Source: Schmidtea polychroa
Lineage: Eukaryota
Assembly: GCA_044892525.1 (NCBI GenBank)
Contig: CM097885.1
Span: 2,978,001-3,042,000, forward strand
Direction: 5' to 3'
DNA: 64,000 nucleotides
The stretch's first letter is position 1, and the number at the start of each line of letters is the position of its first letter. This document shows, piece after piece, positions 12,448-59,780 of the stretch. The notes beneath the pieces are model-generated. The model saw nothing but the letters and a program-made list of their open reading frames with translations, had not been told where the DNA came from and made no database searches. A program made the translations under genes and the position numbers.

Positions 12448-13624
12448 ATGAGATCTTCTTAACAGCTAATGAAATGATTTAATATTAAATAATGTAACAT
12501 TTCATAAATTTATTCACTTTTTCATTAGCTAAATGTTCAAATATAATATTATTAAATCAAAAATGATTTCATGTAAATTAATATTTAAATTCACAAATTT
12601 GATAAATTTTATGAATGAATTTTACAAAGAAATTTATCTTATAAATTAATAATAATATAATAATAATCATATTGTTACTCTGCATTGCTTCGCCCGCCAT
12701 TTGCATTTGTAATGAGATACTTTATAACAGCTAGCGGCCTGATTTAATATTAAATAATCTAACATTTCATAAATTTATTCACTTTTTCATTCGCTAAATG
12801 TTCAAATATAATATTATTAAAACAAAAAATATTTCATGTAAATTAATAATTAATATTTAATTAATATTTAAATTCACAAATTTGATAAATTTGATAAATG
12901 AATTATACTTACGAAATTTATCTTGAAATACTTAAGACTTAAAAAAATTTAGAAAATAAGACAACCAGCTGGATCATATCTATAAAAGCTATAAAAAAAT
13001 ATTTTGAAACCTAAAATTCGTTCGGTCTGTTGTTTAAATGTCCTAGTGTCGCTGATAGATTTACTTAAAGGCATTCATAAAAAATTTTACTTTTAAACCC
13101 CGCTATGAATCAGCCGAGTAATGAGACGAGTTCAAATATAAGAAATTAATTCATTGGGGGTCATTACTTATAAAAAACTAAAATTTATTAAAAATTAATT
13201 AACTAATGGAGAATCAGAGACACTGGTGTAATAGAATTTTACATTTTTTAAATATAATTTCGAACCAAAACAGAACCTCAATTACGTTTTATTTTTACTT
13301 CTGTTTTGGCGTTCTCCACTTCCTGGAACTAAATATATTAAAAAAACTTTATAGCGATAATTTGCTATAGTAAAAATTGACAAAATAAAAAAATCGATTT
13401 AGAAATTTTGATAACTAAGAAAACAGAAAGTTATATAGAAGATTAATCTTAAGATACTCAAGAATAAAGTTCCGAAAAAGATAAAAAAGAAAATTATAAA
13501 ACCTAAACAATTCGAGATTAAAGTTCTGAAAAATATTAAAAGGACTATTATCAAACATTAACAATTCAAGAATAAAATCCCGAAAAAGATAAAAAAGAAA
13601 ATTATAAAGACTTATCCAATTTCT

Positions 13625-16446
13625 TTGAGCCGATTAATAAACACTTTGATCAGCAAATTCGACGAAATAATTGTAGAAAACAGACAAATAAAAGCCGAAC
13701 TAGCCGAAATAAAAGAGAAATACAACAGGCAAAATTTCAATCCAAACGAAAACAGAGATCTGTTCAACCGAAACAATTTCAACACAGACCAACTATCATA
13801 TAATCACAACAGACAAAACTATGACCGACCACCTAACGGAAACAACAGACAGAACTACAGCCACAGACAATCCCCGAACGGCCACTACAGAAACCGGTCA
13901 AACTCCCCAAACCGATACAACAATTACCGAAACAGCAGCCCAGAAAGGGAGTCAAGAAATGATTTTCTAAACAAAAACCACTGCTACTTTCATAACAAAT
14001 TTGGCGACAAAGCATACAAATGCGTAAAACCCTGCGACTATCATAAAACAGAGCAGGAAAACTAAAAAAGTCACTAATGATAGCATCCACATTAGGTGGC
14101 AAAAACAATACATTTTGGGTGCACACAAATAACACCGATTTTCTAATAGACACCGGTTCGGTGATCTCATTACTGCCACATTACATGTATAAAAATACAA
14201 AAACTACAGATAAACCGTTAACAGTAGCCAACGGAACAAGCATCAAAACATTCGGACAACAAACACTAAATCTGAATATAAACAAACAAAATTACAACTG
14301 GACATTCACAATAGCTGACGTTCAACCAGCAATAATAAGAGCAGATTTCCTAACAAAATACAACCTCCTAGTAGATTGCAAAAACAAACAAATATTAGAA
14401 AATACCGATACAACAACATCACAACACATCATGAGCAACAGAGAGAAACCAAAAATTGACATAGGCGTGGTAACTTTAAACACAAAAAACAAAACTAACC
14501 TAGAAAAGATTACACCAGAAATCAACAAAATCCTAGAACGATACAAAGAATTAATGGAACCAGTCCAATTCGACGACAAATCAGAACAAACCACCGAACA
14601 CGCAATACTGACAAATGGAAATCCAGTACATGCAAAAGTAAGACCACTGGATCCCAAAATAATAGAAATCACAAAAAACATCTTCAACGAACTATTGGAA
14701 AACAACATAGTCAGACATTCAAACTAATGCTAAAACAAAGGGCTAATGGCGATTGGAGAGCCTGTGGTGATTACAGACTACTGAATAAAATAACAGAGTC
14801 AGACAGCTACCTAATACCTATAATAAAAGACATAATAAACCGATTAAACGGCGCTAAATACTTTTCAAAAATTGATCTACAAAAGGCATATCATCAGATC
14901 CCAATCAGAAAAGAAGACGTAAAAAAACAGTAATAACAACACCGATAGGAATGTTCGAGTACAATAGAATGCTTTTCGGTCTACGAAATGCCGCAGCAAC
15001 TTTCCAACGAATCATGGACCAAACAATGAAAAACAACAAAAACACAATTGATTACCTAGACGACATCCTAATTACAAGCCCAGATAAAGCAACTCGTTTA
15101 AAAGACGTCGAAAAAGTATTCGAAACGCTGAAAAAAGCAAAATTGAAAATAAACACACAAAAATGTGAATTTATAAAAACAGAAATAAACTTCCTTGGTC
15201 ACACACTAAACAACAAAGGAACAAAACCAATTGAAAACAAAATAAACAGCATAAAAAATTACAAACCGCCGATAAACACAAGAGAGTTGAGGAGATTTCT
15301 AGGAATGGTAAACTTTTATCATTCTTACATCCAAAACTGCAGTAAATTACTAGCACCACTAAACGATCTTATCAAAACAAAACGGAATGTCATAATAAAC
15401 TGGACACACTGAACAACCGAAACTTTCGAGAAAGCCAAAGAAAGCCTTTCAACGGCAACATTACTCGGTTACCCAGATCCAGAGCTAGATTACCAACTAA
15501 CAAGAGACTGTTCAGGTTTTGCAATGGGCGCAACAATTTTCCAGGAAAAAAAATACGGCAAAACAAACACTAGGATTCTTCTCTAAAAAACTAAAATCAC
15601 ACCAAACAAGATACTCAACATTCGACAGAGAACTCCTGGCAATACACGAAGCAATTAAACACTTCCAACATTTGCTTGAAGGACGAAACTTCAAAATATT
15701 CACAGATCACAAACCGCTAACTAACGCAATCGAAATGAAGAATCTCTCACCAAGACAGATTAGACAAATCAACTTCATTTCACAATTCAACTGCACAATA
15801 AACTACGTAGCGGGAAAATCAAACATAGCAGCTGATGCTCTATCGAGAATCGAAAGTGACATTAACTCCCTGGAATTCGAAGAGATAATCGAATTGGACC
15901 AAATTAAATCGAAACAAAACGAAACAATTAATAAACTCCCCACTAAACACAGTTTGAAACTACAAGAACTCAACGGAGTATGGCACGACGTCTCCAACGA
16001 AAGCAACAAACGAATATTACTCCCGGAGGAATTCCGCCAAAACTGTATCGAAAAGATACACATGATTAATCACCCGGGAAACAAAGTAACATTCGAGCTA
16101 ATACATAACTATATATGGCTAACACGCGGAAAGATATCAAAAACTACGTCAAGAGTTGTCACAGCTGTCAACTAAACAAAAAACAACAAAAAAACTCAAA
16201 ACACAAAACGTAAACTTCCAAGGCAGCGAAATATTTGAAACAATACACACAGATGTGGTAGGACCATTACCACCAAACGACAACTACAAATACCTCCTAA
16301 CAATTATAAACAGGAAATCCAACTGGTTCGAAGTAATCTCAATAAAAGAAATCAGCGCGAAAAATATCTGTGAAATGATCGAATTAAATTGGATAGCTCG
16401 TTATGGCCAACCAAAAGCTTTGCATATCACTTATTCCGTAGGCTAG
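13625..16446 (+). mobile_element. Ty3/Gypsy retrotransposon gag-pol, frameshifted and truncated
   Basis: Gag knuckle CYFHNKFGDKAYKCVKPC, protease LIDTGS, RT GDYRLLN/IDLQKAYHQI/YLDD, RNase H YSTFDRELLA/TDHKPL/ADALSR, integrase IHTDVVGPLP. No LTRs identified. Confidence 0.92.
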
Positions 16447-18463: not shown

Positions 18464-32033
<13,570 letters not shown>

Positions 32034-33615: not shown

Positions 33616-35555
33616 ATATATATATATATATATATAGATTTTAATTCAACTTACTTTGGTTTTCTTGCTACAGATTTGCGACTCTTTTAAACAAGCTCTC
33701 AATTTTCAAACTCTAGTCCAACAATAATAATGGCCCACCATAGTCTTTGATCTTTTTACCAGCCGGATACCTATTCTTGCATCGGATACTTTTTTCGGTC
33801 ATGCATTATTTAAATTCTCAATACAGGAATCTTTTTATGTTTATTCTTCATAGTGTTGAGTTCCCAGTATTTCAGATGCTCAACTTTACTGGTTCTTATA
33901 TAAATAAATGAAAAGAAGTTGTAATATAAATATTTATTAACAATAAAATTTACCGAAATAAAAAATTCCAATTTATGATTGATTAAGGTGCATAATTGAT
34001 TCAAACTACGATTAATTCAAACTGCTTGTGAGAAATATGTTATTATTTGTATGTTATATAGTGCTTGCGCATGCAATACTTTAAAAAGATTTGTGAAACG
34101 ATTCTGTACTGCTTCGGGTTTTAACTATTTCTAAGGATTTACCTTTGAAAATACTTTGTCACTAATTTTTGGGCGATTGTACTGATTTTTATTCTAGGCC
34201 ATTAAATATTATAATATCAATATTACTTTTAATTAATATAATAATTAACATAATTCAATTTTTAATAAGTTTCATAATAATTTTACTTAGTGTTAAATTT
34301 TATTGTTATCCGAATAAAAATAAGACATTTAAATAAAATAAATTAAGTATATACACATGAACCTGGTAAAGAATAAAAATTAATCAATAAATAAACAATT
34401 AAAGAATAAAAATATACACGTAAATGATATTCAATTGTCATAAAGGATAATCAATTGTCATGTTCTTAGATTGCGTTTGGATTGAATTAGATTGATTGAA
34501 TTTACCTCGGCTCGAATCTATCACCTTTCCTTGGGACATACGTTAACCTTCTATTTTCTGGGCCCAGTCCTGTAGTATTTATTGACAGTGAATGACTTGA
34601 TGGGCCTACCCTCATCAACCAACAATAGTGAAATAGTCAATTAATGATTTTCGAATTCTGCGACTAACAGCGTTACGCAAATAAATGGTTTATTGTATGA
34701 GTTGTATTTCATTATGTGAATGTCTTTTTATAAAATTTGATCGTGAATTATTTACTATCGCCAGAATCTTTCATTACTTGTATAATTTTTTACAATTACT
34801 TTTTCGTATTTTTCTGTTCATTTTTTAAATGTTAATCGTTCTTCCATATTTACTTCTTAATTTTGTAATATTTAGCTATTTCCCATTGTCAGCCGCACTA
34901 TGAGATTGGTTTGATTGAGGTGGACTGAAGGAATACACTGGTTGGGTTTGCCTATCGATCGACCCATCTTCTACACATCCTAGTAGCTAGAATCGAATCT
35001 AACCAACGTTGATAGGTCAAAAATTTAATTTATAAATGTAACTAAACTTTGGGTGATTGGTGGTCAACCGGGATTATTCTATTTTGTAGAGGAAATAATG
35101 AGATTTAGTTACTCCACTCACCCAATAATTGATTAAGAGTTTGAAATATAAAATTTTGTTTTTCCATTATGTTTCAAGTTCTGTTTTTGCTCTAGTTTCA
35201 CGCTTAGGTTATTTTAGACACCCATATTTCTATTTGCGTAAAAACGCCTTTCAATCATTCCGTCCATCCTTTATGTTTTGAACCAAGATTTTACACTAGA
35301 CATACATTTAAATTTTATATTAACAATGGTTTAATAATTATGTTTTCATATTAACTTTTTCAATTAATAAATATAAATACATTTTTAATAGAATCAGCAT
35401 TTTCATAATATTTATTAATTTAAATATGTAAATAAATCTTTGTTTTAATTATGATTTTTTAGTTGAATATTTAAAATTTCAGGAATTTCAAATTTTTTAA
35501 AATTAACTTTTCATTATAAAGATTGGAATTGCTTTTACCAGATCTTTGTCTTATT

Positions 35556-38500
35556 ATGTCTCAACCTAATACTGAAAATTTGGTCCCCATCGCCATTTTA
35601 ATAGATGAATTACGAAATGATGATATTCAAATTAGGATTAACAGTATTAAAAAATTAGCCACCATTGCATTAGTTCTTGGTGCAGAAAGAACTAGATCAG
35701 AATTAATTCCATTTTTGACTGATACAGTTTACGATGAAGATGAAGTCTTATTAGCATTAGCTGAACAGCTGAAAGATTTTACTCCTCTTGTTGGAGGGAA
35801 TGAATATGTTTATTGTTTATTACCTCCACTGGAAACATTAGCCACAGTAGAAGAAACTATTGTTCGCGATAAAGCAGTGGAAACATTACAACATTTGGAG
35901 AAATTTCATTCAACTCAGGATTTAGAAAAGTATTATGTTCCTATGGTTAAAAGATTATCATCTGGAGAATGGTTTACAAGTCGTACAAGTGCTTCTGGTC
36001 TTTATAGTGTTGTTTACCCACGTGTTTCCGTTGAAATTAAAACGGAATTGTCTCAAATATATCGACAATTATGTATTGATGACACACCGATGGTTCGACG
36101 TGCCGCAGCACAGCGATTAGGTGATCTTGTATCGGTAATGAATGTGGAAAATGTCAGGAATGAAATGTTACCAATTCTAAATATTGTTTCCCAAGATGAA
36201 CAAGATTCCGTTAGATTGTTGTCTATGGGTTGTGGTGTTAGTTTCAGTTCTGTTTTGCCAACTGAGGATATTTTTTCCCACATCATTCCTACTGTAAAAG
36301 CAGCCTCAGAAGATAAAAGCTGGCGAGTTCGTTGCATGTTGGCAGAAAATATAGTGAAACTACAACAGAATGTTGGAGCGAAGATGACAATGGAACATTT
36401 AGTAAATGTTTATGAAGTAAGTATTTATTATTTCCAGCTTTATTTTAATTAAAGATTTTTTTGTTTTTTATTAAAATTAATGAAATAAAAGTCGATATTT
36501 TCATTTATATATTTGATGAGTGAATTATATGGGAATTTTATTGGTCTATCCGTTTGTCCCGTTATTAATGCACGGCTCATTACTATGGTTATCTATGTGA
36601 AATATGAGCATATTATAACGCCCCTGTTGAATTCCATGCTGGGTTTCCAATCAATATATGATTACATAACTGAATGGAATAATTTATGGCTTGGACGCAG
36701 GTAGGACCAGCAAATACCTAGTTCTGCTCGCATTACTCAACTGAATGAATTAGTACATTTTTTATCGATTATCACTTATATATGTGTTAAATATGGATTG
36801 ATGCTATCTATGTTGTTACTCACTTAATCAATATTAATTAATGCTCTTGACTTTGATTGGTTTTCTCATAGCAACAGTTATAAACGGCACCGCCAGTATT
36901 CACGATGGCTACGGTTATAATAGGCACTGTAATGGGCCCTGACCATCAATATGCACCATGGCAACGGTTATATTGGGCCCTGACCCTCAATATGCACCAT
37001 GACAACGGTTATAAAGGGGCCTGATCATCAATATGCACCATGGCTACGGTTATAATAAGCCCTGTAATGGGGCCTGACTCTCAGTATGCATCATGACAAC
37101 GGTTATAATGGGCCCTGTAATGGGGCCTGACCCTCAGTATGCATCATGACAACGGTTATAATGGGCCCTGTAATGGGGCCTGACCCTCAGTATGCATCAT
37201 GACAACGGTTATAATGGGCCCTGTAATGGGGCCTGACCCTCAGTATGCATCATGACAACGGTTATAATGGGCCCTGTAATGGGGCCTGACCCTCAGTATG
37301 CATCATGACAACGGTTATAATGGGCCCTGTAATGGGGCCTGACTCTCAGTATGCATCATGACAACGGTTATAATGGGGCCTGACCCTCAGTATGCATCAT
37401 GACAACGGTTATAATGGGCCCTGATCATCATGATTCACCATGACAACAGTGTTAAATAGGCACTGTAATGGGCACTGGGCCTTAATATCCACCACGACAG
37501 TGGTTATCATAGATACCATCACAGCACCTGGCCATCAATATTCACCATGACAACGGTTATAAAGACCCTGACCATCATCATTCACCATGACAACTGTTGT
37601 GATAGGACTGAAATTCACAATTAATGACCAATGAAATTGTATTCCGTTGCAGAAACTGCTCAACGATTCCGAGGCCGAAGTCAAATCGAACGCTGTTGGC
37701 AAAATGAAAGAGTTCTGCACAGCGCTGCCAGTGGATAAGCGAGAATCGGTGATAATGAACCAAATTTTCCCAGCAGTGAAGGCACTGGTACAGGAGGCCA
37801 ATATGCATGTCAAGACCACCCTGGCTGGCCAGGTGATGGGATTGGCCCCGTTACTAGGCAAGCAGAATGTGATTGACCACCTGATCCCAATATTCCTGAT
37901 CCAGCTGCGGGATGAGAACCCGGACGTGCGGTTGAATGTAATCTGTAATCTGGAATGCGTCAACAATGCCATTGGAGTGCAGCAATTATCGGAGAACTTG
38001 TTACCAGCGATTGTGGAGCTATCGGAAGACAAGAAATGGCGGGTCAGACTGGCAATCATTGAATACGTGCCTCTATTGGCTGGTCAGCTGGGATTGCCGA
38101 TGTTCAATGATGACGAGATCACTAGCCTGTGTATGAACCGGTTGCTAGACAACGTGTACACAGTGCGCGAGGCCGCTGTCAACAGCATCAAGGCACTCGT
38201 TGCTAAGTTTGGCATCGATTGGGCCAAGAAAAATGTTTTGCCAAAGGTTACAATTGCTTGGACGGGCGGAATTTGTGATTGATTGACATTCAGATGATTG
38301 AGTTGTCCACTGATTCCAATTACCTCCACCGGATGATCTGCCTGTTGTCGATCTTGCGCATTGGTGAGGTCTGTGATGCTGAGGTGATCCGATCCCATCT
38401 GCTAAGCATTCTAGTCCAGATGTCGGCCGACAAAGTACCCAATGTCCGATTCAAGGTATTGATTGATTTATTGAATTAATTATTATCGATTGATTTATTG

Positions 38501-39587: not shown

Positions 39588-41783
39588 TGAAATTGCGTGC
39601 GTGATTGATTGTGTTTGTGAGTGAGTGTGTGACTGAGTGTTTCTATGCCGCCTGTTGCTATGACAATTGCGGCAGTCGAGATTAAATTATTACAATAATT
39701 ATAATTGCTGTCGTATGGGGCGGTTGGGGAGGAGTGTGATTGGTGGAGCTCATTCTGATGCCGCTGCCGCCGCCTGATTGGTCAATTGTTTGATCTATAT
39801 ATGTTTGTTTTCATGAATAAATTATTGATTATTGTTTTGTTCATGTCATTCAATATATTTTGTGTTGTCATAGTTACACCATTCCCTCCAATCATTGATC
39901 AATAAATTCCTATCACGCTCCAGGACACCGTGACAACATATCACAATCAATTATCACACCAAATGCTCTATTTTCACTGGTATAAAGTTCAGCATTTTGC
40001 TATTTGGTGACCTGTATCGATTTGTGAGTCTGGTTGGGCTCGCGTGGATTCCCTCCGTTCCGTTTTGTTCTATTAATCAGTGAAGCACCAGAAGCGCTCG
40101 AATTGTCAAATCATAGGGATGAGTGATTGGATAAATAAATTGAAATCACATTTTGTGTTCCTCTTCACCGAAGATTTTGCATTGGTTATATGAATGCTGG
40201 TCTCATGAAATGGTAACCTTTGATATCTCATGTTCACGTGGCTACTTTATGACAATAAATGTCATTCAACAAAAGAAATAAATCTCAAATATTAACTTTC
40301 CATCAGGTAAGTAGAGAAAGATTAGTACCGATGGAATTCAACAAAATAGCTGCGAAACACCAGCATTTGATAACTGTGTATAACTGTGTATATAATCATT
40401 TCCAAATGCCATTATTTATTTGCCACTGCCATTAGAAAGGTTTACCAATTCCAAGGTTAGAAAATTATCATTACAAACAGCATTTTGTATAATTCTTATA
40501 TTATACAGTTAAAATTGTTTTTTGTAATATGACGAGTGATATTTGATGCCGGTGGTTTCCAACCCGGGAGGCGCGGCCTATGGCGAGGGGAGGCGCCAAA
40601 ACTTTTGGGTAAAAAAATAATTTTCATACCATAATCATTTTTTCGTCATTTTTAGCTCTTCGAGTTTAAAATTACCAAATAAAAAATAACAAAATTTAAA
40701 CTCTTACACAATAACAAGAAATGTCAAATTCCAGACATTCTTTACCCTTAAACATCAAGATACTTATAACTATATATATACACCCAACTCTTTTTTTACA
40801 CGGTAGATACGTTCCAACAAAAATCGTGTAAAAAAAGACATGTTAACCATAGTAAAATTGAGGATGTGTTCTACAATTATAGAAAACCGTGTAAAATAGA
40901 AAAAGGAACCATTAGTTGTTCTAAAAAACCGTGCAAAAAATTAGTAAATCTTGAAACCATATTATATAAGTTTTACAAAATATAATCCATACATGTTTTT
41001 ATTAAAAATAGTTAATAATAGTAATTTTAGTCCATAAGTAAAAGACAAATAAATTTTTTTTCATAAATACATATAAATTAAATTCAAATTGGAAATATAA
41101 GTCTTATTTAGCAACTAATATTTATTATCACTACTTTATAATAAGCGTGCACGTTTATTATAGACTGGCTAAAATTGCTTTACTCACTTAGGTTTACCAA
41201 ATCTGATATTGGTTTTCTTATGATAAAATCTGTTATAAGCTGCTGGGTTTCGTCTTTGTAACTTCTTTATAAAGTTCTTGATAGCCAGCCATACAAACCA
41301 GTAAATTCCGTTGGGATTTTAATGCACGTTCCACGATAGGATCATGAGTGAGAAAAATTGTTCTATACTGGTACCAAATTTTAAGCCATCGCGAATTAAA
41401 TCAGAAGTTAGTTGATGCATTTCACCTTCACCTTCGTCTTCGTCACTATGGTTCTCATTAATACCATTATCTGTTATAGCTTCAATCAAGTCCTCACCAT
41501 CTAAAGGTTTTTCAAGCATCAACTCCTCTATATCCGCAACTTGCATATTTTCAAAGCCCTCACCACCAATTTCGTGTGAAAGCGTTAAAATTTCAGAACA
41601 CACAACTGCATTTTGTATTACAGAGTTACTAATTTTAACACCTGCTGGCCATATTTTCTTCCAACAAGCATTTAAGGTAGAAGTCCGCAGTTGCTTTATG
41701 GCAAAAGAAGCATGTGTAATACAATTCATAATTTTTTTTGGAAATAGTGTTAAACCGAATATTTCGTGCAAAAAAAGAAGATT

Positions 41784-44700
41784 AGTAGGTAGATAGTAGC
41801 GTACCGCAGCAATTGGGGGGTACCCCCCCTGCTGCAACTTTTTTTTTGCTGCAACTTTTGATTACGCAATTTTTCAGACTATAGTGAGGGGGTCTCGATG
41901 GTCCTGGGATTTTCAATACAAAAAAAAATTTTTCAATACAAAAATCCGACTACCACTAAAAAAGCATGGAATTTTCACACTATAGTGAGGGGGTCTCGTT
42001 GGTCCTGGGATTTTCAATACAAAAAATTTTTTTCAATACAAAAATCCGACTACCACTAAAAAAGCATGGTAATTTAAGGTCTCAGGATATTTTCAATACA
42101 AATAGGTGGTCTACACTACAAAAGCCAAGGATTTTTCAGACTATAGTGAGGCGAGTCTCCTTGGTCCTGAGAAATAGGCGGTCTTCAATAAAAAAGCATG
42201 GTAATTTAAGGTCTCAGGATATTTTCAATACAAAAAAAATTTTTCAATACAAAAATCCGACTACCACTAAAAAAGCCAAGGATTTTTCAGACTATAGTGA
42301 GGTGAGTCTCCTTGGTCCTGAGAAATAGGTGGTCTACACAAAAAATACGTGGTAATTTAAGGTCTCAGGATATTTTCAATACAAAATGCTGGTCTACACT
42401 AAAAAAGCATGGTAATTTAAGGTCTTAGGATATTTTCAATACAAAAAGCTGGTCTACACTAAAAAAGCCAAGGATTTTTCAGACTATAGTGAGGTGAGTC
42501 TCCTTGGACCTGAGAAATAGGTGGTCTACACTAAAAAACGTGGTAAATTTTTCAATTAAAGTAAATAATGGTCCAAATTTTAAAATTAAAGTAAATTATG
42601 GTTCTAAAAATTGAATTATAGTAAATTATGGCTCAAATTTTGAATTACAGTAATTAATGGTTCTTAAAAATTAAATTATAGTAAATTATGGTCAAAATTT
42701 TTGAATTACAGTAAATAATGGTCCTAAAAATTAAATTAAAGTAAATTATGGTCCAAATTTTTTCAATTAAAGTAAATTATGGTTCTAAAAAATTAAATTA
42801 CAATAAATTATGGTCCTAAAAATTTAATTACAGTAAATAACGGTCCTAAAAAATTAAATTACAGTAAATTATGGTCCAAATTTTTGAATTAAAGTAAATT
42901 ATGGTTCTAAAAATTAAATTAAAAGTAAATTATGGTTCTAAATTTTTCAAATACAGTAAATTATGGTCCTAAAAAATTAAATTACAGTTAATTATGGGTC
43001 TAAAAAATTTAATTATGGTTCAAATTTTTCAATTAAAGTAAATTATGGTTCAAATTTTTAAATTAAAGTAATGAATGGGGTCAAATAACTAAATTAAGGT
43101 TCTAAAAAATTAAATTAAAGTTAATTAAGGTCCAAATTTTAAAATTAAGTAATCAATGGTAAAAAATTTTAAATAAGTAAATTAAAGTAAATTAAAGTAA
43201 GATTTTAAAATTTAATTACAAAATAATAGAAGGTGTTTGAGAATTGAAATTTTTTAATGGAAATTTTTATGAAATAATTTTTTAAGTAATTTTAGATGGA
43301 AATTTTTATGGAATAATTTTTTAAGTTAATTTTTAATGGAAATTTTTATGAATTATTTTTCAATGGTAATTTTTAATGGAAATTTTTATGGAATAATTTT
43401 TTAAGTAATTTTTTATGGAAATTTTAATAGAATAATTTTTAAGTAATTTTTAACGGAAATTTTTATGAAATATTTTTCAATGATAAATTTTAATAATAAT
43501 TCAACAACAAACCAACAACTTAGTACCAACAACCAGTAACTTACGAACATGTATTAACAACCAGATACCTACAACTAGTTACTAACAACTAGTTACATGA
43601 TACTAAGTACCTACAACCACCTACCCATTAACTAGCTACCAAGTACTAACAACCAGGTCTCAAACAACTAAATACTAACAACCAGTTACCAACTACTAAG
43701 TACCTACAACCACCTAGTTACCAGATACCTACAACTAGATACTAACAACTAGATACCAAGTACCTACAACCACCTAGTTACCAGATACCTACAACTAGAT
43801 ACTAACAACTAGATACCAAGTACCTACAACCACCTACCCATTAACTAGATACCAAGTACTAACAACCTACAACAACTAGGTACTAAGCATTATCAACCAA
43901 CTAAATACTAAGTACTAACAACCAACCAACTAGGTACTAGATAGCAAGTACTTACAACCAACATCAACCAACTACTAAGTACTAACAACCAAAAACATGC
44001 AACCAACTAGCTAACAAGTACTAACAACCAGATACCTACAACTAGTTACTAAGCATTAATTACCAACTACTAAGTACCTACAACCTACAACTAGATACTA
44101 ACAACCAGTTACCAGATACCAAATACTTACAACTAGATACCAAGTACTATCAACCAAAAACAACCAACCAACTAGGTACTAGATACCAAGTAGTCACAAC
44201 CGACAACAACCAAGTACTAAGCATTATTAACCAACTACTAAGTACCTACAACCAACTAGCTACCACCTACCAAGTACTAACAACCAGTTACCTGATACCA
44301 AGTACTAACAACCCACAACAATTACCTAACAACTAACTACCACCTACCAAGTACCTACAACTAGATACTAACAACCAGTTACCAAGTACCTACAACCACC
44401 TACCCATTAACTAGCTACAACCAGCTAACTAGGTACTAGATACCAAGTACTAACAACCAGTTACCAACTACTAAGCACCTACAACCACCTACCAAGTACT
44501 AACAACCTACAACAACTAGGTACTAAGCATTATCAACCAACTAAATACTAAGTACTAACAACCAGCTAACAACTAGATACCTAGTACTAAGCACTGTCAA
44601 CTAGATACCAAGCACTGACAACCAGATGACCACATGAAATTATTGGTTAAATAAGTAAATTAATATTTAATTTTTAAATTAACTAATCAATGGTCTAAAA

Positions 44701-45083
44701 TATTAAAGTTAAAGTCAATTTAAGATGAAAGTTTTCTGGGATTTTCAATGTTAATTTTAGATGCAAATCTTCGTCTATTAATCAATGACCACGTGAAATT
44801 ATTAGTTAAATATGAAAATAAGGATTATATTTAGTTGTTAAATTAAGAAATAAAGAATAATTAGGTAAATTAAAGTTAAAAATTTTAAATAAGTAAATTA
44901 AGGTTCAAAATTTAAAATTAAAGAAAACAATGGTTTAAATTAAAGCTAAATGAGTAAATTAAAGTAATGTAATAAGTAAATTAAACTAAGATTTTTAAAT
45001 TTATTATCAAAAGATTGAATAACCACCAACTTTTTTGAGAAATGTAATTTTTAATGAAAATTTAAATGGAATAATAATAATAA

Positions 45084-45114
<31 letters not shown>

Positions 45115-48100
45115 AATAATTCAACAGTTACCAACAATCGGTTACTAAATATTTTTAACTAGATGCTAACAAATACTTTGAACATGATACCACGTACTAA
45201 CTAACTCTCAAACAACCAAGTAAAAACAATCAAGTACCAACAATCAACTAAATATTCTTCATTGTATTTTATGAATTGTTTTTTAAATTAATTTTTTATC
45301 TATCTTCAAAAATATGTTTAATTACAATCAGTAGAAAAACCTTTTCAAAATGTCTAAATTTAACAAAAATGTTGATTTTCATCAAAAAACCACAACTCAA
45401 CCACTTTAAAACACCACGTGAAATTCAAAATAATTACAATGAAAGACAAATGAATTCTAATTTACAAAACATTCTTCTTTTAAATGATAACTACTGACTT
45501 ATTATTGCAATGTAAAAATCGCATTCAATAAATACTTATTGTTGATCAGTTTTATTATATATACTCTGAGTTTATCCGACAGGATGTTTTGACCCCCTAA
45601 GGGTACTGGTCGTAAGGGTACTGGTCGTAAAGGTACTAGTCGTAAGGGTATTGGTAACTCTCAACCCCCACCTACCCATTAAGTAGTTACTATCAATCAG
45701 CTAACAACTAGATACCATGTACTAACAACCACCATCAACCAGATACTAAGCATTATCAACCTACAACTATATAACAACAATCAGTAAACAACACTATACC
45801 AACTACCAAATATAAGATACCAACAACATAGTATCATCAACCAGTAACTTACGAAGATGTACTAACAACCAACAACTATGTACTAACAAATTGATCTTTA
45901 AAAGCAAATACTCATCACTTGAAAAATTAGATGGAAAATTAATTGAACTCAAGGCATCAATAACTAGGTAAAATTTGATTAAATTATTGTAAAAATTTAA
46001 ATTATTCAAAATAAATATCATAAAAATTTAATTAATGGACAGGAAAAAATTCTAATCATTAATCATCCAGTAAATAAAAAAAATACTGATCATTCAAATT
46101 GAATCAACTAAGATAATAAATTAATAAAAGTTTTGAAATAAGATCTAGATTTAGATTGAATAAAATTAATTTTAATTATTTTTGTAAAAGTAATACATGT
46201 ACTCAAATTGATTGACTGATTTCTCAATATATTCAAAAATCAATATAAATTCATTAAAATTATCAAAGTCAGCAATCTACAATAAAAATAATTATCATTA
46301 AATTCCAAAAGAGACTAGATAACTAATGATAACATCTAACAAACCAGTAAATTCATTTAAATGGCAATAATTGGTATATCCAAGTGAATTCTCTAATAAA
46401 ATCATCTAAAAAGCATCATTTTCCCTAAATATATCAATATTTAAAGATTGGTATTGTAATGATAAATACTTGTTAAAGATCATATATTCTCATCAAACTA
46501 ATAAGATTCCTTAAAATCCCTTAAATGACTATATTTCTACCCTTAATTCATATTATTACAAATAATTCATTAAAATCATCTAAAAAGCATCATTTCCCCT
46601 AAATATATCAATATTTAAAGATTGATATTTTAATGATAAGTACCCGTAAAGGATCATATATTCCCCTCAGACTAATAAGATTGCTAAAAGTCCCATTTAA
46701 ATGACTATAATTCTAACTTTAATTCCTATTATCACGAATATTTCCCTATAAAACATGTAAAATCATTAACCCTAAATAATTTATAAAATCTAATGATAAA
46801 AGTGGTTATAATTAAATTTTTGTTAATCACTGTACTCGATATTTTAAATAAATATTACTACAATATAACTGACTAGGTCCCATTGAAAGATTAAATTTAT
46901 CCATTCAATAAAATATATTTCTTCAAATGATCATTTTTACCAATATTCAACCGATTTAATTACTAATTAAAATCAAGATTTCTTCCAATAAAGATCAATG
47001 TTTTAAGTCCCTATTTCTCAACTTTTGTCATTCTCTGCTTAAATAAAGAGAAAAAAAATAATTTAAAGTTGATATCAATCCCAATTATCTGTAAAGATTT
47101 CATTATCAAAACCAAGTAAATCGATCATTATCCCTACTTAGTAAAACATTGTTCTAAATTAATTTACTGTGCATTAATCACAACCTAATAAAACGATATA
47201 ATTTCACATTATTATTGATTCATAACTGACTAATTGACATTTCCCTTAAAACAATGATATTTTACCAACATCACCATTAAAAAAATCATATATTCCCATC
47301 TTAACCCATCTCTCATTAAATTTAACCGACTATATTCCCATCTTAACCCATCCTTCATTAAAGTCAATCGACTATATCTCCCTTACAATGATATATATTC
47401 CCATCTTAACCTATCCCTCATTTAATCTAACCGACTATATCTCCCTTACAATGATCTATTTCCACCTTAACCCATCCTTCATTAAATCTAACCAACTATA
47501 TCCTCTCAAAAGATCATATATTCCCATCTTAATCGATCTCTCAGCAAATATTTCTACCTCTTTAAACATCTAACCGAATATATCCTTCAATTCTACCCAC
47601 TTGAATCCTCCTTTAATTCAATTCAGTCCTAAAATCTTTAAAGAACTTCAAAAATATGACTTAATTGTTATAGACACCAAATATTCTTCCATTGAAATAA
47701 TTTAGTAGCTATGTAGTAAGAGTTCACTAAAAGATCAAAAATCAATATTTTCTACAAATATTTACCATCAAATACTGGAGATGATATATATTGATTGATC
47801 ATAATTCTTCATCGATTCAACCAATCATTTTCAAGCAATAACAGCAAACTAAATTTCTGTATATCCTACAATAATTATCAAGTAAATTTAAAGTCATTGA
47901 TAAAGTTGGTTTCTTAGCTTATGTTTTTTAAAGTGCATCAATGTGTAAATATTCTTAGAAAATTATTGAAAAATTATTTAGTCAAATACATTACAAAGTT
48001 ATCATCAAAAATCACTTAATTATTAACCTAATTGTCAATGAAATTAATTTTTATTTAAAAACTATTCAATAAAATACAACTAATTATCAAGAAATTAATT

Positions 48101-49659
48101 AAATTTATCAATTAAATTTATCAGTCAACATGAAATTCTTAGAAAATTATTCAATATCCTCATAAAAATTTATCATATCACTTCATTATTGTAAAATCTC
48201 TAATTATTAACCTCATTGAAAATAATTTTTATTTAAAATTAAAAAAAAACAAGTCAATAAAAATACATCCAATTATCAAGAAATTAATTAAATTTATCTT
48301 AGAATTAGCATTAAATTATTAAATATTCATTCAATAAACATGAAATTTGCAAAAATGTTAGAAATCCATGAAAATAATAGAAATTCACAAAAATAATGGA
48401 AATTCACAAAATTGATAAAAATTCACAAAATGATAGAAATTCACAAAAAATGATGGAAATTCATAAAAATGATAGAAATTTACTTGAATAAAACCATCAA
48501 CTCTAAAAATTATCAATACCTTAAACATCAAATTTGCCTAAATAATCATTCAAATAAAAACATCAATTTGAGTACATGTATTACTTTTACAAAAATAATT
48601 AAAATTAATTTTATTCAATCTAAATCTAGATCTTATTTCAAAACTTTTATTAATTTATTATCTTAGTTGATTCAATTTGAATGATCAGTATTTTTTTTAT
48701 TTACTGGATGATTAATGATTAGAATTTTTTCCTGTCCATTAATTAAATTTTTATGATATTTATTTTGAATAATTTAAATTTTTACAATAATTTAATCAAA
48801 TTTTACCTAGTTATTGATGCCTTGAGTTCAATTAATTTTCCATCTAATTTTTCAAGTGATGAGTATTTGCTTTTAAAGATCAATTTGTTAGTACATAGTT
48901 GTTGGTTGTTAGTACATCTTCGTAAGTTACTGGTTGATGATACTATGTTGTTGGTATCTTATATTTGGTAGTTGGTATAGTGTTGTTTACTGATTGTTGT
49001 TATATAGTTGTAGGTTGATAATGCTTAGTATCTGGTTGATGGTGGTTGTTAGTACATGGTATCTAGTTGTTAGCTGATTGATAGTAACTACTTAATGGGT
49101 AGGTGGGGGTTGAGAGTTACCAATACCCTTACGACTAGTACCTTTACGACCAGTACCCTTACGACCAGTACCCTTAGGGGGTCAAAACATCCTGTCGGAT
49201 AAACTCAGAGTATATATAATAAAACTGATCAACAATAAGTATTTATTGAATGCGATTTTTACATTGCAATAATAAGTCAGTAGTTATCATTTAAAAGAAG
49301 AATGTTTTGTAAATTAGAATTCATTTGTCTTTCATTGTAATTATTTTGAATTTCACGTGGTGTTTTAAAGTGGTTGAGTTGTGGTTTTTTGATGAAAATC
49401 AACATTTTTGTTAAATTTAGACATTTTGAAAAGGTTTTTCTACTGATTGTAATTAAACATATTTTTGAAGATAGATAAAAAATTAATTTAAAAAACAATT
49501 CATAAAATACAATGAAGAATATTTAGTTGATTGTTGGTACTTGATTGTTTTTACTTGGTTGTTTGAGAGTTAGTTAGTACGTGGTATCATGTTCAAAGTA
49601 TTTGTTAGCATCTAGTTAAAAATATTTAGTAACCGATTGTTGGTAACTGTTGAATTATT

Positions 49660-49690
<31 letters not shown>

Positions 49691-52600
49691 TTATTATTAT
49701 TATTCCATTTAAATTTTCATTAAAAATTACATTTCTCAAAAAAGTTGGTGGTTATTCAATCTTTTGATAATAAATTTAAAAATCTTAGTTTAATTTACTT
49801 ATTACATTACTTTAATTTACTCATTTAGCTTTAATTTAAACCATTGTTTTCTTTAATTTTAAATTTTGAACCTTAATTTACTTATTTAAAATTTTTAACT
49901 TTAATTTACCTAATTATTCTTTATTTCTTAATTTAACAACTAAATATAATCCTTATTTTCATATTTAACTAATAATTTCACGTGGTCATTGATTAATAGA
50001 CGAAGATTTGCATCTAAAATTAACATTGAAAATCCCAGAAAACTTTCATCTTAAATTGACTTTAACTTTAATATTTTAGACCATTGATTAGTTAATTTAA
50101 AAATTAAATATTAATTTACTTATTTAACCAATAATTTCATGTGGTCATCTGGTTGTCAGTGCTTGGTATCTAGTTGACAGTGCTTAGTACTAGGTATCTA
50201 GTTGTTAGCTGGTTGTTAGTACTTAGTATTTAGTTGGTTGATAATGCTTAGTACCTAGTTGTTGTAGGTTGTTAGTACTTGGTAGGTGGTTGTAGGTGCT
50301 TAGTAGTTGGTAACTGGTTGTTAGTACTTGGTATCTAGTACCTAGTTAGCTGGTTGTAGCTAGTTAATGGGTAGGTGGTTGTAGGTACTTGGTAACTGGT
50401 TGTTAGTATCTAGTTGTAGGTACTTGGTAGGTGGTAGTTAGTTGTTAGGTAATTGTTGTGGGTTGTTAGTACTTGGTATCAGGTAACTGGTTGTTAGTAC
50501 TTGGTAGGTGGTAGCTAGTTGGTTGTAGGTACTTAGTAGTTGGTTAATAATGCTTAGTACTTGGTTGTTGTCGGTTGTGACTACTTGGTATCTAGTACCT
50601 AGTTGGTTGGTTGTTTTTGGTTGATAGTACTTGGTATCTAGTTGTAAGTATTTGGTATCTGGTAACTGGTTGTTAGTATCTAGTTGTAGGTTGTAGGTAC
50701 TTAGTAGTTGGTAATTAATGCTTAGTAACTAGTTGTAGGTATCTGGTTGTTAGTACTTGTTAGCTAGTTGGTTGCATGTTTTTGGTTGTTAGTACTTAGT
50801 AGTTGGTTGATGTTGGTTGTAAGTACTTGCTATCTAGTACCTAGTTGGTTGGTTGTTAGTACTTAGTATTTAGTTGGTTGATAATGCTTAGTACCTAGTT
50901 GTTGTAGGTTGTTAGTACTTGGTATCTAGTTAATGGGTAGGTGGTTGTAGGTACTTGGTATCTAGTTGTTAGTATCTAGTTGTAGGTATCTGGTAACTAG
51001 GTGGTTGTAGGTACTTAGTAGCTAGTTAATGGGTAGGTGGTTGTAGGTACTTGGTATCTAGTTGTTAGTATCTAGTTGTAGGTATCTGGTAACTAGGTGG
51101 TTGTAGGTACTTAGTAGTTGGTAACTGGTTGTTAGTATTTAGTTGTTTGAGACCTGGTTGTTAGTACTTGGTAGCTAGTTAATGGGTAGGTGGTTGTAGG
51201 TACTTAGTATCATGTAACTAGTTGTTAGTAACTAGTTGTAGGTATCTGGTTGTTAATACATGTTCGTAAGTTACTGGTTGTTGGTACTAAGTTGTTGGTT
51301 TGTTGTTGAATTATTATTAAAATTTATCATTGAAAAATATTTCATAAAAATTTCCGTTAAAAATTACTTAAAAATTATTCTATTAAAATTTCCATAAAAA
51401 ATTACTTAAAAAATTATTCCATAAAAATTTCCATCTAAAATTACTTAAAAAATTATTTCATAAAAATTTCCATTAAAAAATTTCAATTCTCAAACACCTT
51501 CTATTATTTTGTAATTAAATTTTAAAATCTTACTTTAATTTACTTTAATTTACTTATTTAAAAATTTTTTACCATTGATTACTTAATTTAAAAATTATTA
51601 CTTTAATTTACTTATTTAAAATTTTTTACCATTGATTACTTAATTTTAAAATTTGGACCTTAATTAACTTTAATTTAATTTTTTAGAACCTTAATTTAGT
51701 TATTTGACCCCATTCATTACTTTAATTTAAAAATTTGAACCATAATTTACTTTAAGTGAAAAATTTGAACCATAATTAAATTTTTTAGACCGATAATTAA
51801 CTGTAATTTAATTTTTTAGGACCATAATTTACTGTATTTGAAAAATTTAGAACCATAATTTACTTTTAATTTAATTTTTAGAACCATAATTTACTTTAAT
51901 TCAAAAATTTGGACCATAATTTACTGTAATTTAATTTTTTAGGACCGTTATTTACTGTAATTTAATTTTTAGGACCATAATTTACTGTAATTTAATTTTT
52001 TAGAACCATAATTTACTTTAATTGAAAAAATTTGGACCATAATTTACTTTAATTTAATTTTTAGGAACATTATTTACTGTAATTCAAAAATTTTGACCAT
52101 AATTTACTATAATTTAATTTTTAAGAACCATTAATTACTGTAATTCAAAATTTGAGCCATAATTTACTATAATTCAATTTTTAGAACCATAATTTACTTT
52201 AATTTTAAAATTTGGACCATTATTTACTTTAATTGAAAAATTTACCACGTTTTTTAGTGTAGACCACCTATTTCTCAGGTCCAAGGAGACTCACCTCACT
52301 ATAGTCTGAAAAATCCTTGGCTTTTTTAGTGTAGACCAGCTTTTTGTATTGAAAATATCCTGAGACCTTAAATTACCATGCTTTTTTAGTGGTAGTCAGA
52401 TTTTTGTATTGAAAAAAATTTTTTGTATTGAAAATTCCAGGACCATCGTTTTTGTATTGAAAAAAAAATTTTTTGTATTGAAAATCCCAGGACCAACGAG
52501 ACCCCCTCACTATAGTGTGAAAATATCATGCTTTTTTAGTGGTAGTCGGATTTTTGTATTGAAAAATTTTTTTTTGTATTGAAAATCCCAGGACCATCGA

Positions 52601-52717
52601 GACCCCCTCACTATAGTCTGAAAAATTGCGTAATCAAAAGTTGCAGCAAAAAAAAAGTTGCAGCAGGGGGGGTACCCCCCCCCCCCCATTGCTGCGGTAC
52701 GCTACTATCTACCTACT
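41784..52717. mobile_element. 10.9-kb non-autonomous Maverick/Polinton-like palindromic element; arms 41784-46212 and 48562-52717, spacer 46213-48561
   Basis: Termini AGTAGGTAGATAGTAGCGTACC / GGTACGCTACTATCTACCTACT; TSD AAGATT at 41778-41783 and 52718-52723; mirrored spurious ORFs (45276-45497 vs 49277-49498). No pPolB, integrase or capsid ORF. Confidence 0.8.
43500..44630. repeat. Complex strand-skewed satellite in left arm (mirror at ~50145-51310)
   Basis: Shuffled words AAGTACTAACAACC, CTAGATACC and AAGTACCTACAACC. Confidence 0.85.
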
Positions 52718-52791
52718 AAGATTTGTTCCTTTTTTGTGGACCGTGTTATTTCAAAATCGTGTAAAAAAAGACCGTGTAAAAAATGAGTTGG

Positions 52792-52844
<53 letters not shown>

Positions 52845-53514
52845 CACTCTACATTCTGATCTTCTGAACTGCTTACACAAATTGACGCCGCGTGTCTAGG
52901 GCATATATTTTACCGCATGATACGCATACTGTCGAATATTTTCTGTCAAGATTTCGAGGGCAATGTATGCATTTTTTATGGCTGGTCGAATTTCATTTTG
53001 AGATTGTTCTTGTAAAATATTGTTACTATGAAGTGCATAATATGTCGACGTTGTGCTCGTGTGAGGGTTTGAATAGTACTTCTATATTTCAGGTAGTCAT
53101 CAAAAAGAGAAAAATCTAATGTTTTGAGATATTTTTTCTAGGTTTTATAAATTTTTTCAAGCAAAAAAAAATACGTAATCGGTCGCGTGGGGTCTTTACA
53201 AGCCCACGCGTGAACAAAAATTTTCGTTACTCAGGCGTCGTGCGAAAACTCAGCCGCGCATATATTGCAAAGTACGTACTTGTTATTTAGGCAGCTACTG
53301 AGACACACGAACCCGTAACTTAAATAATTAAAAATTTATGTAGGTTTTTCTAAGCTACGGGCCTTTAGAGACCCAACGCTACCGACGATGTAAGAAAAAT
53401 AGGGTTAATTTGTAATTTAATATACAAATAAATATACATGTTCGTATGTTAATGCAAAACCTTGTTTTTATTCTGTTAATTGTAGTTTTAATTTTTTTTG
53501 AAATAAAGTTATTA

Positions 53515-55200: not shown

Positions 55201-56903
55201 ATTAAATTAAATGTTTCATTCTTGTGATAAAAAGCGATAGCTCTCAGAAAATCAACGTTTGACATGTTGTTTCCACTCTTCTGCGAATATCACGATATCT
55301 TTTAGAAGTGACGTGATTCTGACCGGTTTTGAAACTTATATATTCGGTTTGCAATATCTTTTTTGATTCCTTCAAAAAACTTCCAAATATTGTGATGATG
55401 GCATTGAAAAAGAGACTGTAAAGAAAAGTGCCATTCTTCAACCGAATTCGTCGTCCTTGCGATTCCATCAATAGCTGATTGATTTTGATTCCATATAGTA
55501 ATAGAAAAAATTGGCTCATGGTAACTTTCAAAGACTCCCAGTAGTCGTCTTCCCCGAATGTAAGTTAGTTCAAAATTTGACAGCAACTTCTCTGTTTTTC
55601 TGTTACTGGAAAAACGCTTCAATTTCCTTAAATGCGCTAATTATGTTTGCTTCAGGCACCATCGCTAAAGCAGGAAAACAACAAATGAGCATTCTAAGTT
55701 CGTTATCGCGTTCATAATCACTTTGAAAACCGGTATTACGAACTTTTCTTTGAAAACTCTGACAGAGATGAAAATAACAGCCAGTTATTGGTGATTCTTC
55801 ATAGATAACTCGAAAAGCATTTATTGCTGCTTTTTCAAAATCAACCAAAATGTTTGTCGGGTTTGCTTCAGGAACCAAGTTTGAAATCAGATTGACCATT
55901 CGAATGTATGCTCGCATTGAAAGGCAATATATTGCTGCTGGGCAATGTCCGGACGTGAGCTCAAAATGAATAAAATATAATTGAAAAAAAGTTGAGGAAA
56001 CAACATCGAAGGTTCCATCCGCCAACCAAAGATTGGATCTTTCGAATCCAGGAAGTATACCTCGGAACCGAATATAATTATTCTTTCAGCTCCTAATCCA
56101 TCGTAGCCTTATTGTAGCCTTACAAACAAACTTTTGATAAAACTTAGATCTCCACTGAATAGTACCATCTTTGTTGTTTCGATGATTATTATATTCAAAA
56201 TTTTTAAAAATTACTCTGTTTGTTTTCCACTTGAAGAAACTCCAAATTCAAATGAATCCATTTGTAATCGTTTATTTAATAGAATTATATTTATTAATTA
56301 AAAATATATGAAGTGATAAGTTATCGCGTAATAGAATGTCGCGTGATAAAATGTCTGTACATGGAAAAATAAATATCTTTGGCTGATGAAGTGTTTACCC
56401 CGCTTAAATATTTCACTTTCATGTTTCAACAGTCAATCGTCCTTCACCAACATCCATTTCTTATTATGAGCATCAAAGGTCATAACTATTTCTATTTCAT
56501 TCGATGCAAAAGTGATATGCAAATATCGTGGCATATCAATGAAAAAACGAATGTATAATTTCCAAAAACCTTTAATAAAGAACTAACAGACAAATACAAA
56601 GCTTGTATAAGAATTGGAGGGCAATGATAGAAAAGAAAAAAAGAGATGAAATAAAAGAAAATATGTTATGAAAGTGACCATGGCTAGATTGTCAGTGCAA
56701 ACTAAAAGATGTCCACCTCAATTTCAAAGGGCCTTTCCTATTCATGGAAACTAGGAAAATGACCAAATCTGCCACTAGTCAGTACCAATATATATATGAA
56801 ACAAATTGCAATTAGAAAAGAACATTAGAAAGGATTAGAAACCTAATAGGTAAATGTAAAGAAAACAAATAAAATAAACATTTTATTTATTATTTATTTA
56901 GTT

Positions 56904-58989: not shown

Positions 58990-59610
58990 CTATGGTTTAT
59001 TCATTACGGGGTGTTTTCGTCTTAAACAAGTGAAAAAGATCTTTTTGTAATTGATAGTATCACACGCTCTATTTTTACATAGTTTCTTTTCCAAATAACT
59101 TTCAGCCTCCAATTGCTTTCCACCAACTGCAACAGCTCGATGTCCAGCTACAAAGCCACTGGGATCAGTTTTGAATAATAACGGTTTGTCCATTTCAATA
59201 TCATAAGATAATGCTATCATTGAACAACCTAATGGTCGCATCTCAGCCGATTGAGTGTAAAGCTTATTAATATCCGCAATACAACGACATATTATGTCAC
59301 AAGGCATTTCATATCCATTTTTATATTTAAATCGAGATGCTTCCATTTGCGCACGACATACTTGAGATTGACAATCAGGGATTATACCAGTCATAACACA
59401 TCCAGTACTTTCAGTAATATTAAACAATCTTGTAGCTGAACTCTTCTCAATCATTTTATCTGGAACTTTTCTTTGTGTAGCTACTACACCACAATTATTG
59501 CCTCGAATACCAATGGAAAGCAATCCATCTAATGCAATTGCCTTAAATGCATATTCGACTTGGAATAATCTCCCTTCAGGTGAGAAAATAATCTTCGCTA
59601 TATTGCTCAT
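58990..59610 (-). pseudogene. PSMA6: Proteasome subunit alpha-6-like, intronless, C-terminally truncated
   Basis: IFSPEGRLFQVEYAFKAI, QRKVPDK, GYEMPCD, YTQSAEMRPLG, KTDPSG, YLEKK; similarity ends after YLEKKL. Confidence 0.8.
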
Positions 59611-59780
59611 TGGAATATGACATTTCAGACATTCATTTTCTTCAATATTTCAACTAAAATCAAAAATTAAAAATTTCCACCAAAGACTCTCTTTTTAAAC
59701 AATAATTTCTCTTTCAGCAGAGAACAAATCAATTCTATATCAAATTAAAAACTACCATAAAATATACTACAACTTACTTC

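Follow-up and report, generated by a model that had tools for sequence, protein, structure and literature searches.

Positions 41784-52717 of the window (the whole stretch analysed here, 64,000 nucleotides of Schmidtea polychroa contig CM097885.1, assembly GCA_044892525.1, positions 2,978,001 to 3,042,000) hold a 10,934-bp insertion that consists of two long inverted arms and a single-copy centre. This element is very probably a non-autonomous, gene-less satellite of the Maverick/Polinton elements that is mobilised in trans, and a probable copy-back palindrome. It is precisely inserted, carries no gene, shares its termini with gene-bearing Mavericks of the same genome and belongs to a gene-less family of high copy number in which a 6-bp target-site duplication is the rule. 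It has every cis feature of a Maverick for which we tested: the 6-bp duplication, the end motifs, ends in common with coding copies and dispersed gene-less copies.

Insertion, anatomy and termini

The element interrupts a multicopy host repeat. In the genome (781 Mb, four large contigs and small ones) the left flank of this repeat has 50 matches, the full-length ones at 90-98% identity. The repeat gave no Pfam match; we take it to resemble the C-termini of pogo/Tigger transposases. For an empty-site test, 220 nt were taken from each of four paralogs of the repeat, and all four run uninterrupted through ...GCAAAAAAAGAAGATTTGTTCCTTTTTTG... with one AAGATT. Thus, 10,934 nt were inserted precisely and 6 bp were duplicated. 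The perfect AAGATT duplication of the original prediction, made earlier from the letters of the window, is borne out by both flanks and by the empty paralogs. In the window copy, neither flank mirrors the other and the symmetry ends exactly at the termini, so the palindrome belongs to the element and not to the chromosome.

The two arms had been given as 4,429 and 4,156 nt, about 80% of the element, and this was confirmed by global alignment of 41784-46212 with the reverse complement of 48562-52717 (8,585 of 10,934 nt, 79%). The alignment has 4,039 matches, 17 mismatches and 8 indel events totalling 473 nt. Every indel falls in a tandem-repeat array of the outer 2 kb (outward of 43757), and there are no substitutions at all inward of 43032. 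A repeat finder resolves the same symmetry into inverted blocks, the longest of 2,466 nt at 100% identity (43747-46212 / 48562-51027), followed by blocks of 818 nt (98%), 411 nt (100%) and 219 nt (99%). Tandem repeats with units of 10 to ~150 nt fill much of each arm (Table 1). The strand that runs 5' to 3' inward from either terminus is G-poor, a strong asymmetry (GC skew -0.33 to -0.40 in the left arm, +0.36 in the right arm) that comes largely from the A/C-rich 14/21/28-nt arrays.

The element was predicted to hold no intact gene, and we found none. Of the 19 stop-to-stop frames (minimum 60 aa) that overlap 41000-53500, the longest to lie wholly inside the element has 122 aa, and none of seven internal frames tested matched Pfam at E<=0.01. 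DNA_pol_B_2, rve integrase, capsid and packaging ATPase are absent by Pfam searches of the frames and by tblastn with the proteins of coding partners (see below). No tRNA genes were found in the element and no Rfam families inside it; two weak microRNA-like matches fall in a (TA)n run outside. A scan of the centre for bacterial-type promoters and terminators gave fewer sites than shuffled sequence and is irrelevant for a eukaryote. A Polinton by definition encodes protein-primed DNA polymerase B (pPolB) and integrase, according to the account in PMC5499653; having neither, the window element is not an autonomous member of the Mavericks/Polintons.

The element starts with AGTAGGTAGATAGTAGCGTACCGCAGCAAT at 41784 and ends with its reverse complement at 52717, in the pattern AGTAG GTAG ATAG TAG ... 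CTA CTAT CTAC CTACT. This terminal 30-mer occurs at 826 places in the genome (421 + 405, at most 3 mismatches) versus 0 + 0 for a reversed control. Among the 100 places listed, 34 convergent (+,-) pairs and 32 singles can be distinguished. One pair spans 6.6 kb, 6 span 10.9-12.2 kb (one is a duplicate contig), 23 span 14.1-17.9 kb, 2 span 19.2-20.0 kb and 2 span 33-34 kb. Eight elements with both ends were taken from these pairs for content analysis; nine elements among the 34 pairs were classified as coding or non-coding, and ten elements were dissected in all. The dissected copies are referred to by letter.

Coding copy A and non-coding copies B and F carry the same 30 of 30 terminal letters as the window copy; the AGTAG-repeat termini that had been recognised as Maverick-type are thus identical to those of an element with Maverick genes. 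A variant terminus that differs by one letter is common to coding copy E and non-coding copies D and G. A G/C palindrome of the type GCAGCAATTGGGGGGGTACCCCCCCTGCTGC adjoins the terminus in the coding and non-coding copies compared, at variable length. Both ends were read in nine distinct elements, of which seven have perfect, informative 6-bp duplications, so that the genome search establishes 6 bp as the rule of the family. Of the seven non-coding elements, six (window copy, B, D, F, G and H) have such a duplication, each a different one (Table 1), and C has none. Copy E lies inside a (TA)n run, where a duplication is uninformative.

Two of the copies, A (15.4 kb) and E (17.5 kb), are coding Mavericks, and they are the partners with shared ends for which the original prediction had suggested a search. 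They contain a protein-primed polymerase (DNA_pol_B_2, PF03175, E 1.1e-31), an integrase core (rve, PF00665, E 1.2e-08, with weak rve_3 and chromo matches in addition), a match to A32-like ATPase (E 2.9e-07) and, as capsid candidate, a 408-aa frame whose nearest Atlas clusters are double-jelly-roll-like capsid proteins, mostly of arthropods (score 0.98). A protease was not identified in these two copies. All 44 pPolB matches in the genome that were scored are 98-100% identical, and 42 of the 44 are without a stop. The coding Mavericks also have a TATA-binding-protein domain (PF00352, E 5.4e-16) in a frame of 171 aa, which is unusual Maverick cargo.

The terminal inverted repeat (TIR) of copy A measures 1,148 nt. 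The outer 1.1-1.7 kb of the window element is 75-81% similar to this TIR, the match extending over element positions 1-1705. Only the terminus and the array at 42545..43071 are in common with the coding Mavericks.

It is extremely improbable that the ends are used by some other transposase (MULE (Mutator-like element)/Foldback, P/Galileo or another DDE enzyme) and that the likeness to Mavericks is a coincidence. P, MULE and Foldback (FB) elements make 7-9-bp duplications. Duplications of other lengths, or ends of MULE or P type, had been named as observations that would speak against a Maverick; the duplication is 6 bp in seven of seven informative matching cases, and copies with pPolB and integrase genes carry the identical terminal 30-mer. 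Moreover, tblastn and Pfam found no transposase relic inside the element. The resemblance that this alternative can draw on lies in the arms, since the Drosophila elements FB, Galileo and Tetris, as described in PMC4168063 and PMC4079207, also have long inverted arms full of tandem repeats, mostly non-coding and variable in length. However, these belong to other superfamilies and have other ends, in contrast to the Maverick ends and 6-bp duplication found here.

The gene-less family and its palindromic relatives

Internal sequence of the window copy is present in copies B, C, D, F, G and H. In copies B, C, D, G and H, the only frames that reach 130 aa are repeat translations. When the frames of at least 80 aa from A and E were used in tblastn, no relics of Maverick genes were found in the window copy, B, C, D, F, H or K; the matches in non-coding copies are limited to spurious frames inside the ~1.2-kb TIR. 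Copy F (G000:C4:55.34 Mb) is 20 kb in total, and a nested retroelement is its only long coding content (Table 1). A 30-mer of the centre (46860-46889) is conserved in seven of seven other copies and served as a marker for the family. It occurs at 2,386 places in the genome (1,190 + 1,196) versus 0 in the control. The first 100 of these, all exact, include 25 convergent (+,-) pairs with a median spacing of 5.6 kb and only one divergent (-,+) neighbour pair. We rejected an ordinary decayed Maverick as an explanation of the window element, since it is free of gene relics and belongs to a large family with duplications of its own.

The 2,349-nt centre has 51 matches at 73-100% identity, many of which are inverted pairs a few kb apart. 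Canonical relatives contain two copies of the centre sequence, which form the inner portions of their arms. Mapping on copy G gives the canonical form as a near-palindrome of ~15-16 kb, with arms of ~6.8-7.4 kb and a loop of ~0.9 kb. By the same mapping, the window copy and B are without the loop and the inner right arm, and C and D are without the inner left arm. Copy H consists of one arm and 0.5 kb of the other end, and the loop is found in both orientations. The window element had been framed as a single giant foldback; it is instead a deletion derivative of an abundant family that has larger canonical palindromes. Among the 40 of 2,088 candidates that were scored, the junction 48561/48562 is matched end to end only by the window itself, and the window copy is thus a private deletion derivative of that family. 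The inverted duplication of an end recurs with variable turn-round points: arms measure 4.2-7.4 kb with differing inner limits in the window copy, B, C, D, G and K, and the turn-round or deletion points vary among these copies and H. Within a copy, the arms are 98.9-100% identical in the window copy, B, D and F and 95-99% identical in G; the divergence between copies is 3-17%.

Several gene-less copies are of nearly equal length (window copy, 10,934 nt; B, 11,333 nt; C, 11,398 nt; D, 11,001 nt), which they have reached by losing different parts, some from the left inner arm and others from the right. Between the window copy and B, the breakpoints are offset by no more than ~200 and ~20 nt, despite a sequence difference of 14-17%. 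A deletion hotspot or selection on size could explain both observations. The closest relative of the window centre, at 95-98% identity, is copy K (L047/L048, G000:C1:233.53 Mb), a canonical palindrome.

Long palindromic arms are not confined to the gene-less elements: polymerase-bearing Mavericks of this genome are commonly palindromic too. A 30-mer marker for pPolB occurs at 1,518 places (791 + 727), and 60 of its first 100 exact places belong to 30 convergent pairs, whose median spacing is 10.1 kb. One such pair was taken for dissection. It is a polymerase-only palindrome of 13.5 kb (L053, L054; G000:C1:2663675-2677166), ~340 kb upstream of the window, with arms of 6,237 nt at 99.65% identity and a loop of ~1.0 kb. 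It contains two inverted pPolB frames of 1,020 aa and a 199-aa frame, and no integrase, capsid or ATPase matches were found in it. This palindrome has its own 6-bp duplication, TTTCTG, and a variant terminus; positions 651-1614 of the window element match it. Overall, the flanks are not mirror images in seven of the eight end pairs tested. Together with the 6-bp duplications outside both arms, this indicates that whole palindromes were inserted as units.

A proposed mechanism and its relation to known systems

The original prediction had suggested a satellite mobilised in trans. Mobilisation in trans predicts gene-less relatives at other loci with 6-bp duplications of their own, and these were found, as were the shared ends; the enzymes that would act in trans are themselves inferred. 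In our model, the element retains only cis-acting ends, namely the reiterated AGTAG... terminus, the G/C palindrome and the subterminal repeat arrays. The integrase of a coding Maverick would insert it, and this dependence would account for the precise insertion and the 6-bp duplication. The terminal-protein/polymerase system of the coding Mavericks would most likely copy the element from the reiterated terminus. Ends of this kind agree with the sliding-back by which protein-primed replicons initiate. During copying, the strand-displacing polymerase may switch to the displaced or nascent strand and copy back, thereby duplicating one end in inverted orientation, and the palindrome of the family probably arose by strand switching of this kind. 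According to PMC4176320, phi29 polymerase can switch template onto the displaced strand.

The long arms would then let a displaced single strand snap into a panhandle, by which the duplex origin would be rebuilt and the arms would be kept identical. The window copy would have lost the loop and the inner 2.35 kb of the right arm via the 2-nt microhomology junction, either during its last copying round or in place, as long palindromes tend to. We speculate that the subterminal arrays act like the packaging-signal repeats near adenovirus's left inverted terminal repeat (ITR); according to PMC12090768, that signal consists of AT-rich repeats beside the left ITR, and the left end is over-represented in incomplete particles. 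The size classes that gene-less and coding elements have in common might, equally speculatively, hint at a constraint on length.

Several observations weigh against this reading. Beyond the outer ~1.7 kb, the arms show no relationship to the coding Mavericks examined, and the family is therefore more than a copy-back of some known coding end. Helper-derived sequence, by which copy-back can be judged, is found in the pPolB palindromes; in the non-coding family, matches to coding copies are confined to the outer ~1.7 kb. The arms of the canonical relative K are only 86.5-87% alike, which is a misfit with arms that are always homogenised; K is an old copy or a chimera formed from two subfamilies. 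Copy C is without a target-site duplication. Because its junction is private, the window form has not demonstrably transposed after its deletion. In four of 16 sequencing runs (all short assembled contigs), compared over 41300-53200, the pieces were shorter than 160 nt with hundreds of repeat-induced joints, and the ends and the junction were unspanned. Finally, one end pair (L029/L030, G000:C1:65900855-65917794) has flanks that are mirror images over 1,500 nt at 99.93% identity. This is a 16.9-kb non-coding family member whose palindrome extends beyond the element, as either a chromosomal inverted duplication or an assembly foldback would produce, and some palindromes here could therefore be chromosomal or assembly products.

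The last two points bear on the possibility that, in a family which is itself real, the window copy owes its inner architecture to faulty assembly, by mis-joining or collapse of a long palindrome or by foldback chimeric reads. Foldback artefacts in long reads are documented in bioRxiv 10.1101/2025.07.15.664946. The mirror flanks of L029/L030 are what an assembly foldback would give, the short-contig runs offer no spanning record for the window copy, its junction is unique among the candidates compared and its arms are 100% identical over 2,466 nt. We nevertheless regard an artefact as unlikely. In the window copy the symmetry breaks off exactly at the termini, between flanks that do not mirror each other, and the AAGATT duplication and the empty sites are exact. 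Copy B, which is at another locus and is 83-86% identical, has nearly the same architecture, and three other copies of ~11 kb exist.

Host chromosomal processes, such as hairpin-capped breaks or inverted duplication in the repair or replication of inserted copies, might also make the palindromes, in place of the Maverick polymerase; the deletions would then be ordinary instability of palindromes in place, and the elements would be decayed remains instead of a lineage of replicating satellites. The palindrome of L029/L030 does reach past the end of the element, and the deletion in the window copy takes out the centre of symmetry at a 2-nt microhomology, with a private junction. Loss of the centre at a microhomology is known from the resolution of palindromes in cells. 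However, the other seven of the eight end pairs lack mirror flanks, palindromic elements have the 6-bp duplication outside both arms, and near-identical sequence is found at thousands of marker places at unlinked loci (the first 100 all exact). A chromosomal origin is thus improbable.

A satellite mobilised in trans accommodates these data better, and a more specific form of it can be put forward tentatively, although we think it rather less likely than not to hold in full. The family may be a lineage of helper-sized (~11-16 kb) palindromic satellites, defective or hyperparasitic, which are made by copy-back, replicated through a panhandle and possibly packaged by the capsid of the helper. The size classes of ~11 and 14-18 kb match those of the helper, and on this ground the satellites may be packaged by the helper capsid. 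By marker places, the gene-less family outnumbers the helper (pPolB marker) by 2,386 to 1,518. If correct, no earlier integrated record of defective-interfering-like genomes would exist for a Maverick, and the family would offer a natural handle on Maverick replication. To our knowledge, the replication of Mavericks/Polintons has never been directly observed, and their copying and movement have been deduced almost wholly from gene content.

The arms could alternatively serve the host as a takeover or brake, read-through of long inverted repeats yielding hairpin RNA and small RNAs against the sequences that the arms have in common with Mavericks. Such a role would be compatible with mobilisation in trans. 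The architecture would suit it, with near-perfect inverted arms of 4-7 kb and, in the pPolB palindromes, two inverted polymerase genes, and a natural inverted-duplicate silencer of maize Mutator is a precedent for hairpin silencing. However, the non-coding arms have only the TIR in common with coding Mavericks and so could not target Maverick genes, which makes this role very unlikely.

The ends of the window element closely resemble those of known Mavericks/Polintons. In vertebrates, Mavericks have 6-bp duplications and ends of the form (AGT)2//(ACT)2 or (AG)3//(CT)3 (PMC8097293, Barreat & Katzourakis 2021); here the 6-bp duplication accompanies reiterated AGT AG...//...CT ACT ends and TIRs that are common to coding copies. 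The window element differs in being gene-less and in its arms, which measure 4.2-4.4 kb (up to ~7.4 kb in relatives) and whose inner parts are unrelated to the coding copies examined. That Maverick TIRs are usually much shorter, as the original prediction held, agrees with the values for intact vertebrate elements reported in PMC8097293 (46-1,447 bp, mean 402).

A parallel among integrated elements is provided by the polintons of butterflies and moths, for which the Pannagram preprint (bioRxiv 10.1101/2025.02.07.637071) describes TIRs of ~2 kb and polB-less forms that are still mobile. By that account, they too have unusually long TIRs that duplicate internal sequence, and their amplified polB-less members raise the same question of mobilisation in trans; yet they keep capsid and other genes, and their TIRs contain hexon and adenain. 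The elements described here are wholly non-coding, with arms that make up ~80% or more and with thousands of marker places.

Subgenomic palindromes of phi29 and adenovirus share with the family the inverted duplication of one end, the variable turn-round points, the retention of the origin and end-proximal repeats and, as we infer here, the reliance on the terminal-protein/polymerase system of a helper. Subgenomic phi29 molecules were reportedly described by Esteban et al. in 1997 and by Murthy et al. in 1998. These phi29 and adenovirus forms are extrachromosomal by-products, made in vitro or in infected cells, whereas the family here is large and integrated in the germline with duplications. 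Unlike in the phi29 and adenovirus palindromes, the inner sequence here does not appear to come from the helper.

Tlr1 of Tetrahymena has long, repeat-filled terminal inverted repeats. It was the only case that turned up in the literature on non-autonomous Polintons/Mavericks, within the portions of the sources available to us. Tlr1 elements have sometimes been viewed as non-autonomous polintons and are now placed in a family of polinton-like viruses with many genes, according to PMC5499653; the window element has none. No palindromic, foldback, copy-back or inverted-duplicate Mavericks/Polintons, and no gene-less amplified palindromic Maverick family, were found in our literature searches; Kapitonov & Jurka 2006, Pritham et al. 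2007 and Repbase, which lay outside them, may mention non-autonomous copies.

A family with ~1.7 kb of shared end sequence defines the minimal cis needs of a Maverick as the reiterated terminus, the G/C palindrome and the subterminal arrays. Palindromes of one end, common among coding and non-coding elements, are the footprint to be expected of a strand-switching, strand-displacing, protein-primed polymerase, and their prevalence makes the model of Maverick replication testable in a real genome. As a rough estimate (2,386 places at 5-7 kb), ~12-16 Mb of this genome would be left unclassified by gene-based searches for Mavericks. Long perfect palindromes are, in addition, fragile sites and possible sources of hairpin RNA.

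Features and surroundings of the window element

The features described above are collected in Table 1.

Table 1. Features of the window element, its insertion site and related copies. Positions are those of the window unless a locus is named.
Feature	Position	Strand	Remarks
Interrupted multicopy host repeat	41319..41783	-	resumes at 52724-52794 beyond the insertion
Target-site duplication AAGATT, left copy	41778..41783	.	single AAGATT in 4/4 uninterrupted paralogs
Left arm	41784..46212	+	4,429 nt
Terminal 30-mer AGTAGGTAGATAGTAGCGTACCGCAGCAAT	41784..41813	+	first 16 nt are reiterated (A)GTAG/GTAG/ATAG/TAG units
Subterminal G-run/C-run palindrome GCAGCAATTGGGGGGGTACCCCCCCTGCTGC	41806..41835	.	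read directly from the sequence
Subterminal 101-, 151- and 60-nt tandem repeats	41871..42468	.	site of copy-number differences between arms
Array of ~30/61-nt repeats	42545..43071	.	17.7 copies; repeat finding
A/C-rich 14/21/28-nt tandem arrays	43511..44632	.	mirrored as G/T-rich arrays at 50142-51299
Single-copy centre of window copy	46213..48561	+	2,349 nt
Deletion junction, centre to inner right arm	48561..48562	.	2-nt AT microhomology
Right arm	48562..52717	-	4,156 nt
Target-site duplication AAGATT, right copy	52718..52723	.	single AAGATT in 4/4 uninterrupted paralogs
6-bp duplications of the dissected copies			window AAGATT; A TCGGTC; B GTCACA; D ATAATC; F ATCACT; G AATAAT; H TCCCAT
TATA-binding-protein-domain frame of coding Mavericks	L040:5211-5723 and L032:3481-3993	+	PF00352
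Nested retroelement in copy F	L041:4209-8819		reverse transcriptase PF00078, E 4.5e-29; Ulp1-type protease PF02902, E 1.4e-09

Elsewhere in the window, a gene with a TRAF-type zinc finger and a MATH domain lies at 10389-11897, followed by the pol region of a retroelement of long-terminal-repeat type (RVT_1, RT_RNaseH) at 13562-16175 and a long (AAT)n tract at 18943-19606. Exons of a HEAT protein similar to the scaffold subunit of protein phosphatase 2A occupy 35520-38282. On the other side of the element, a weak MULE transposase fragment is found at 55603-56085 and a proteasome alpha subunit at 58990-59649.

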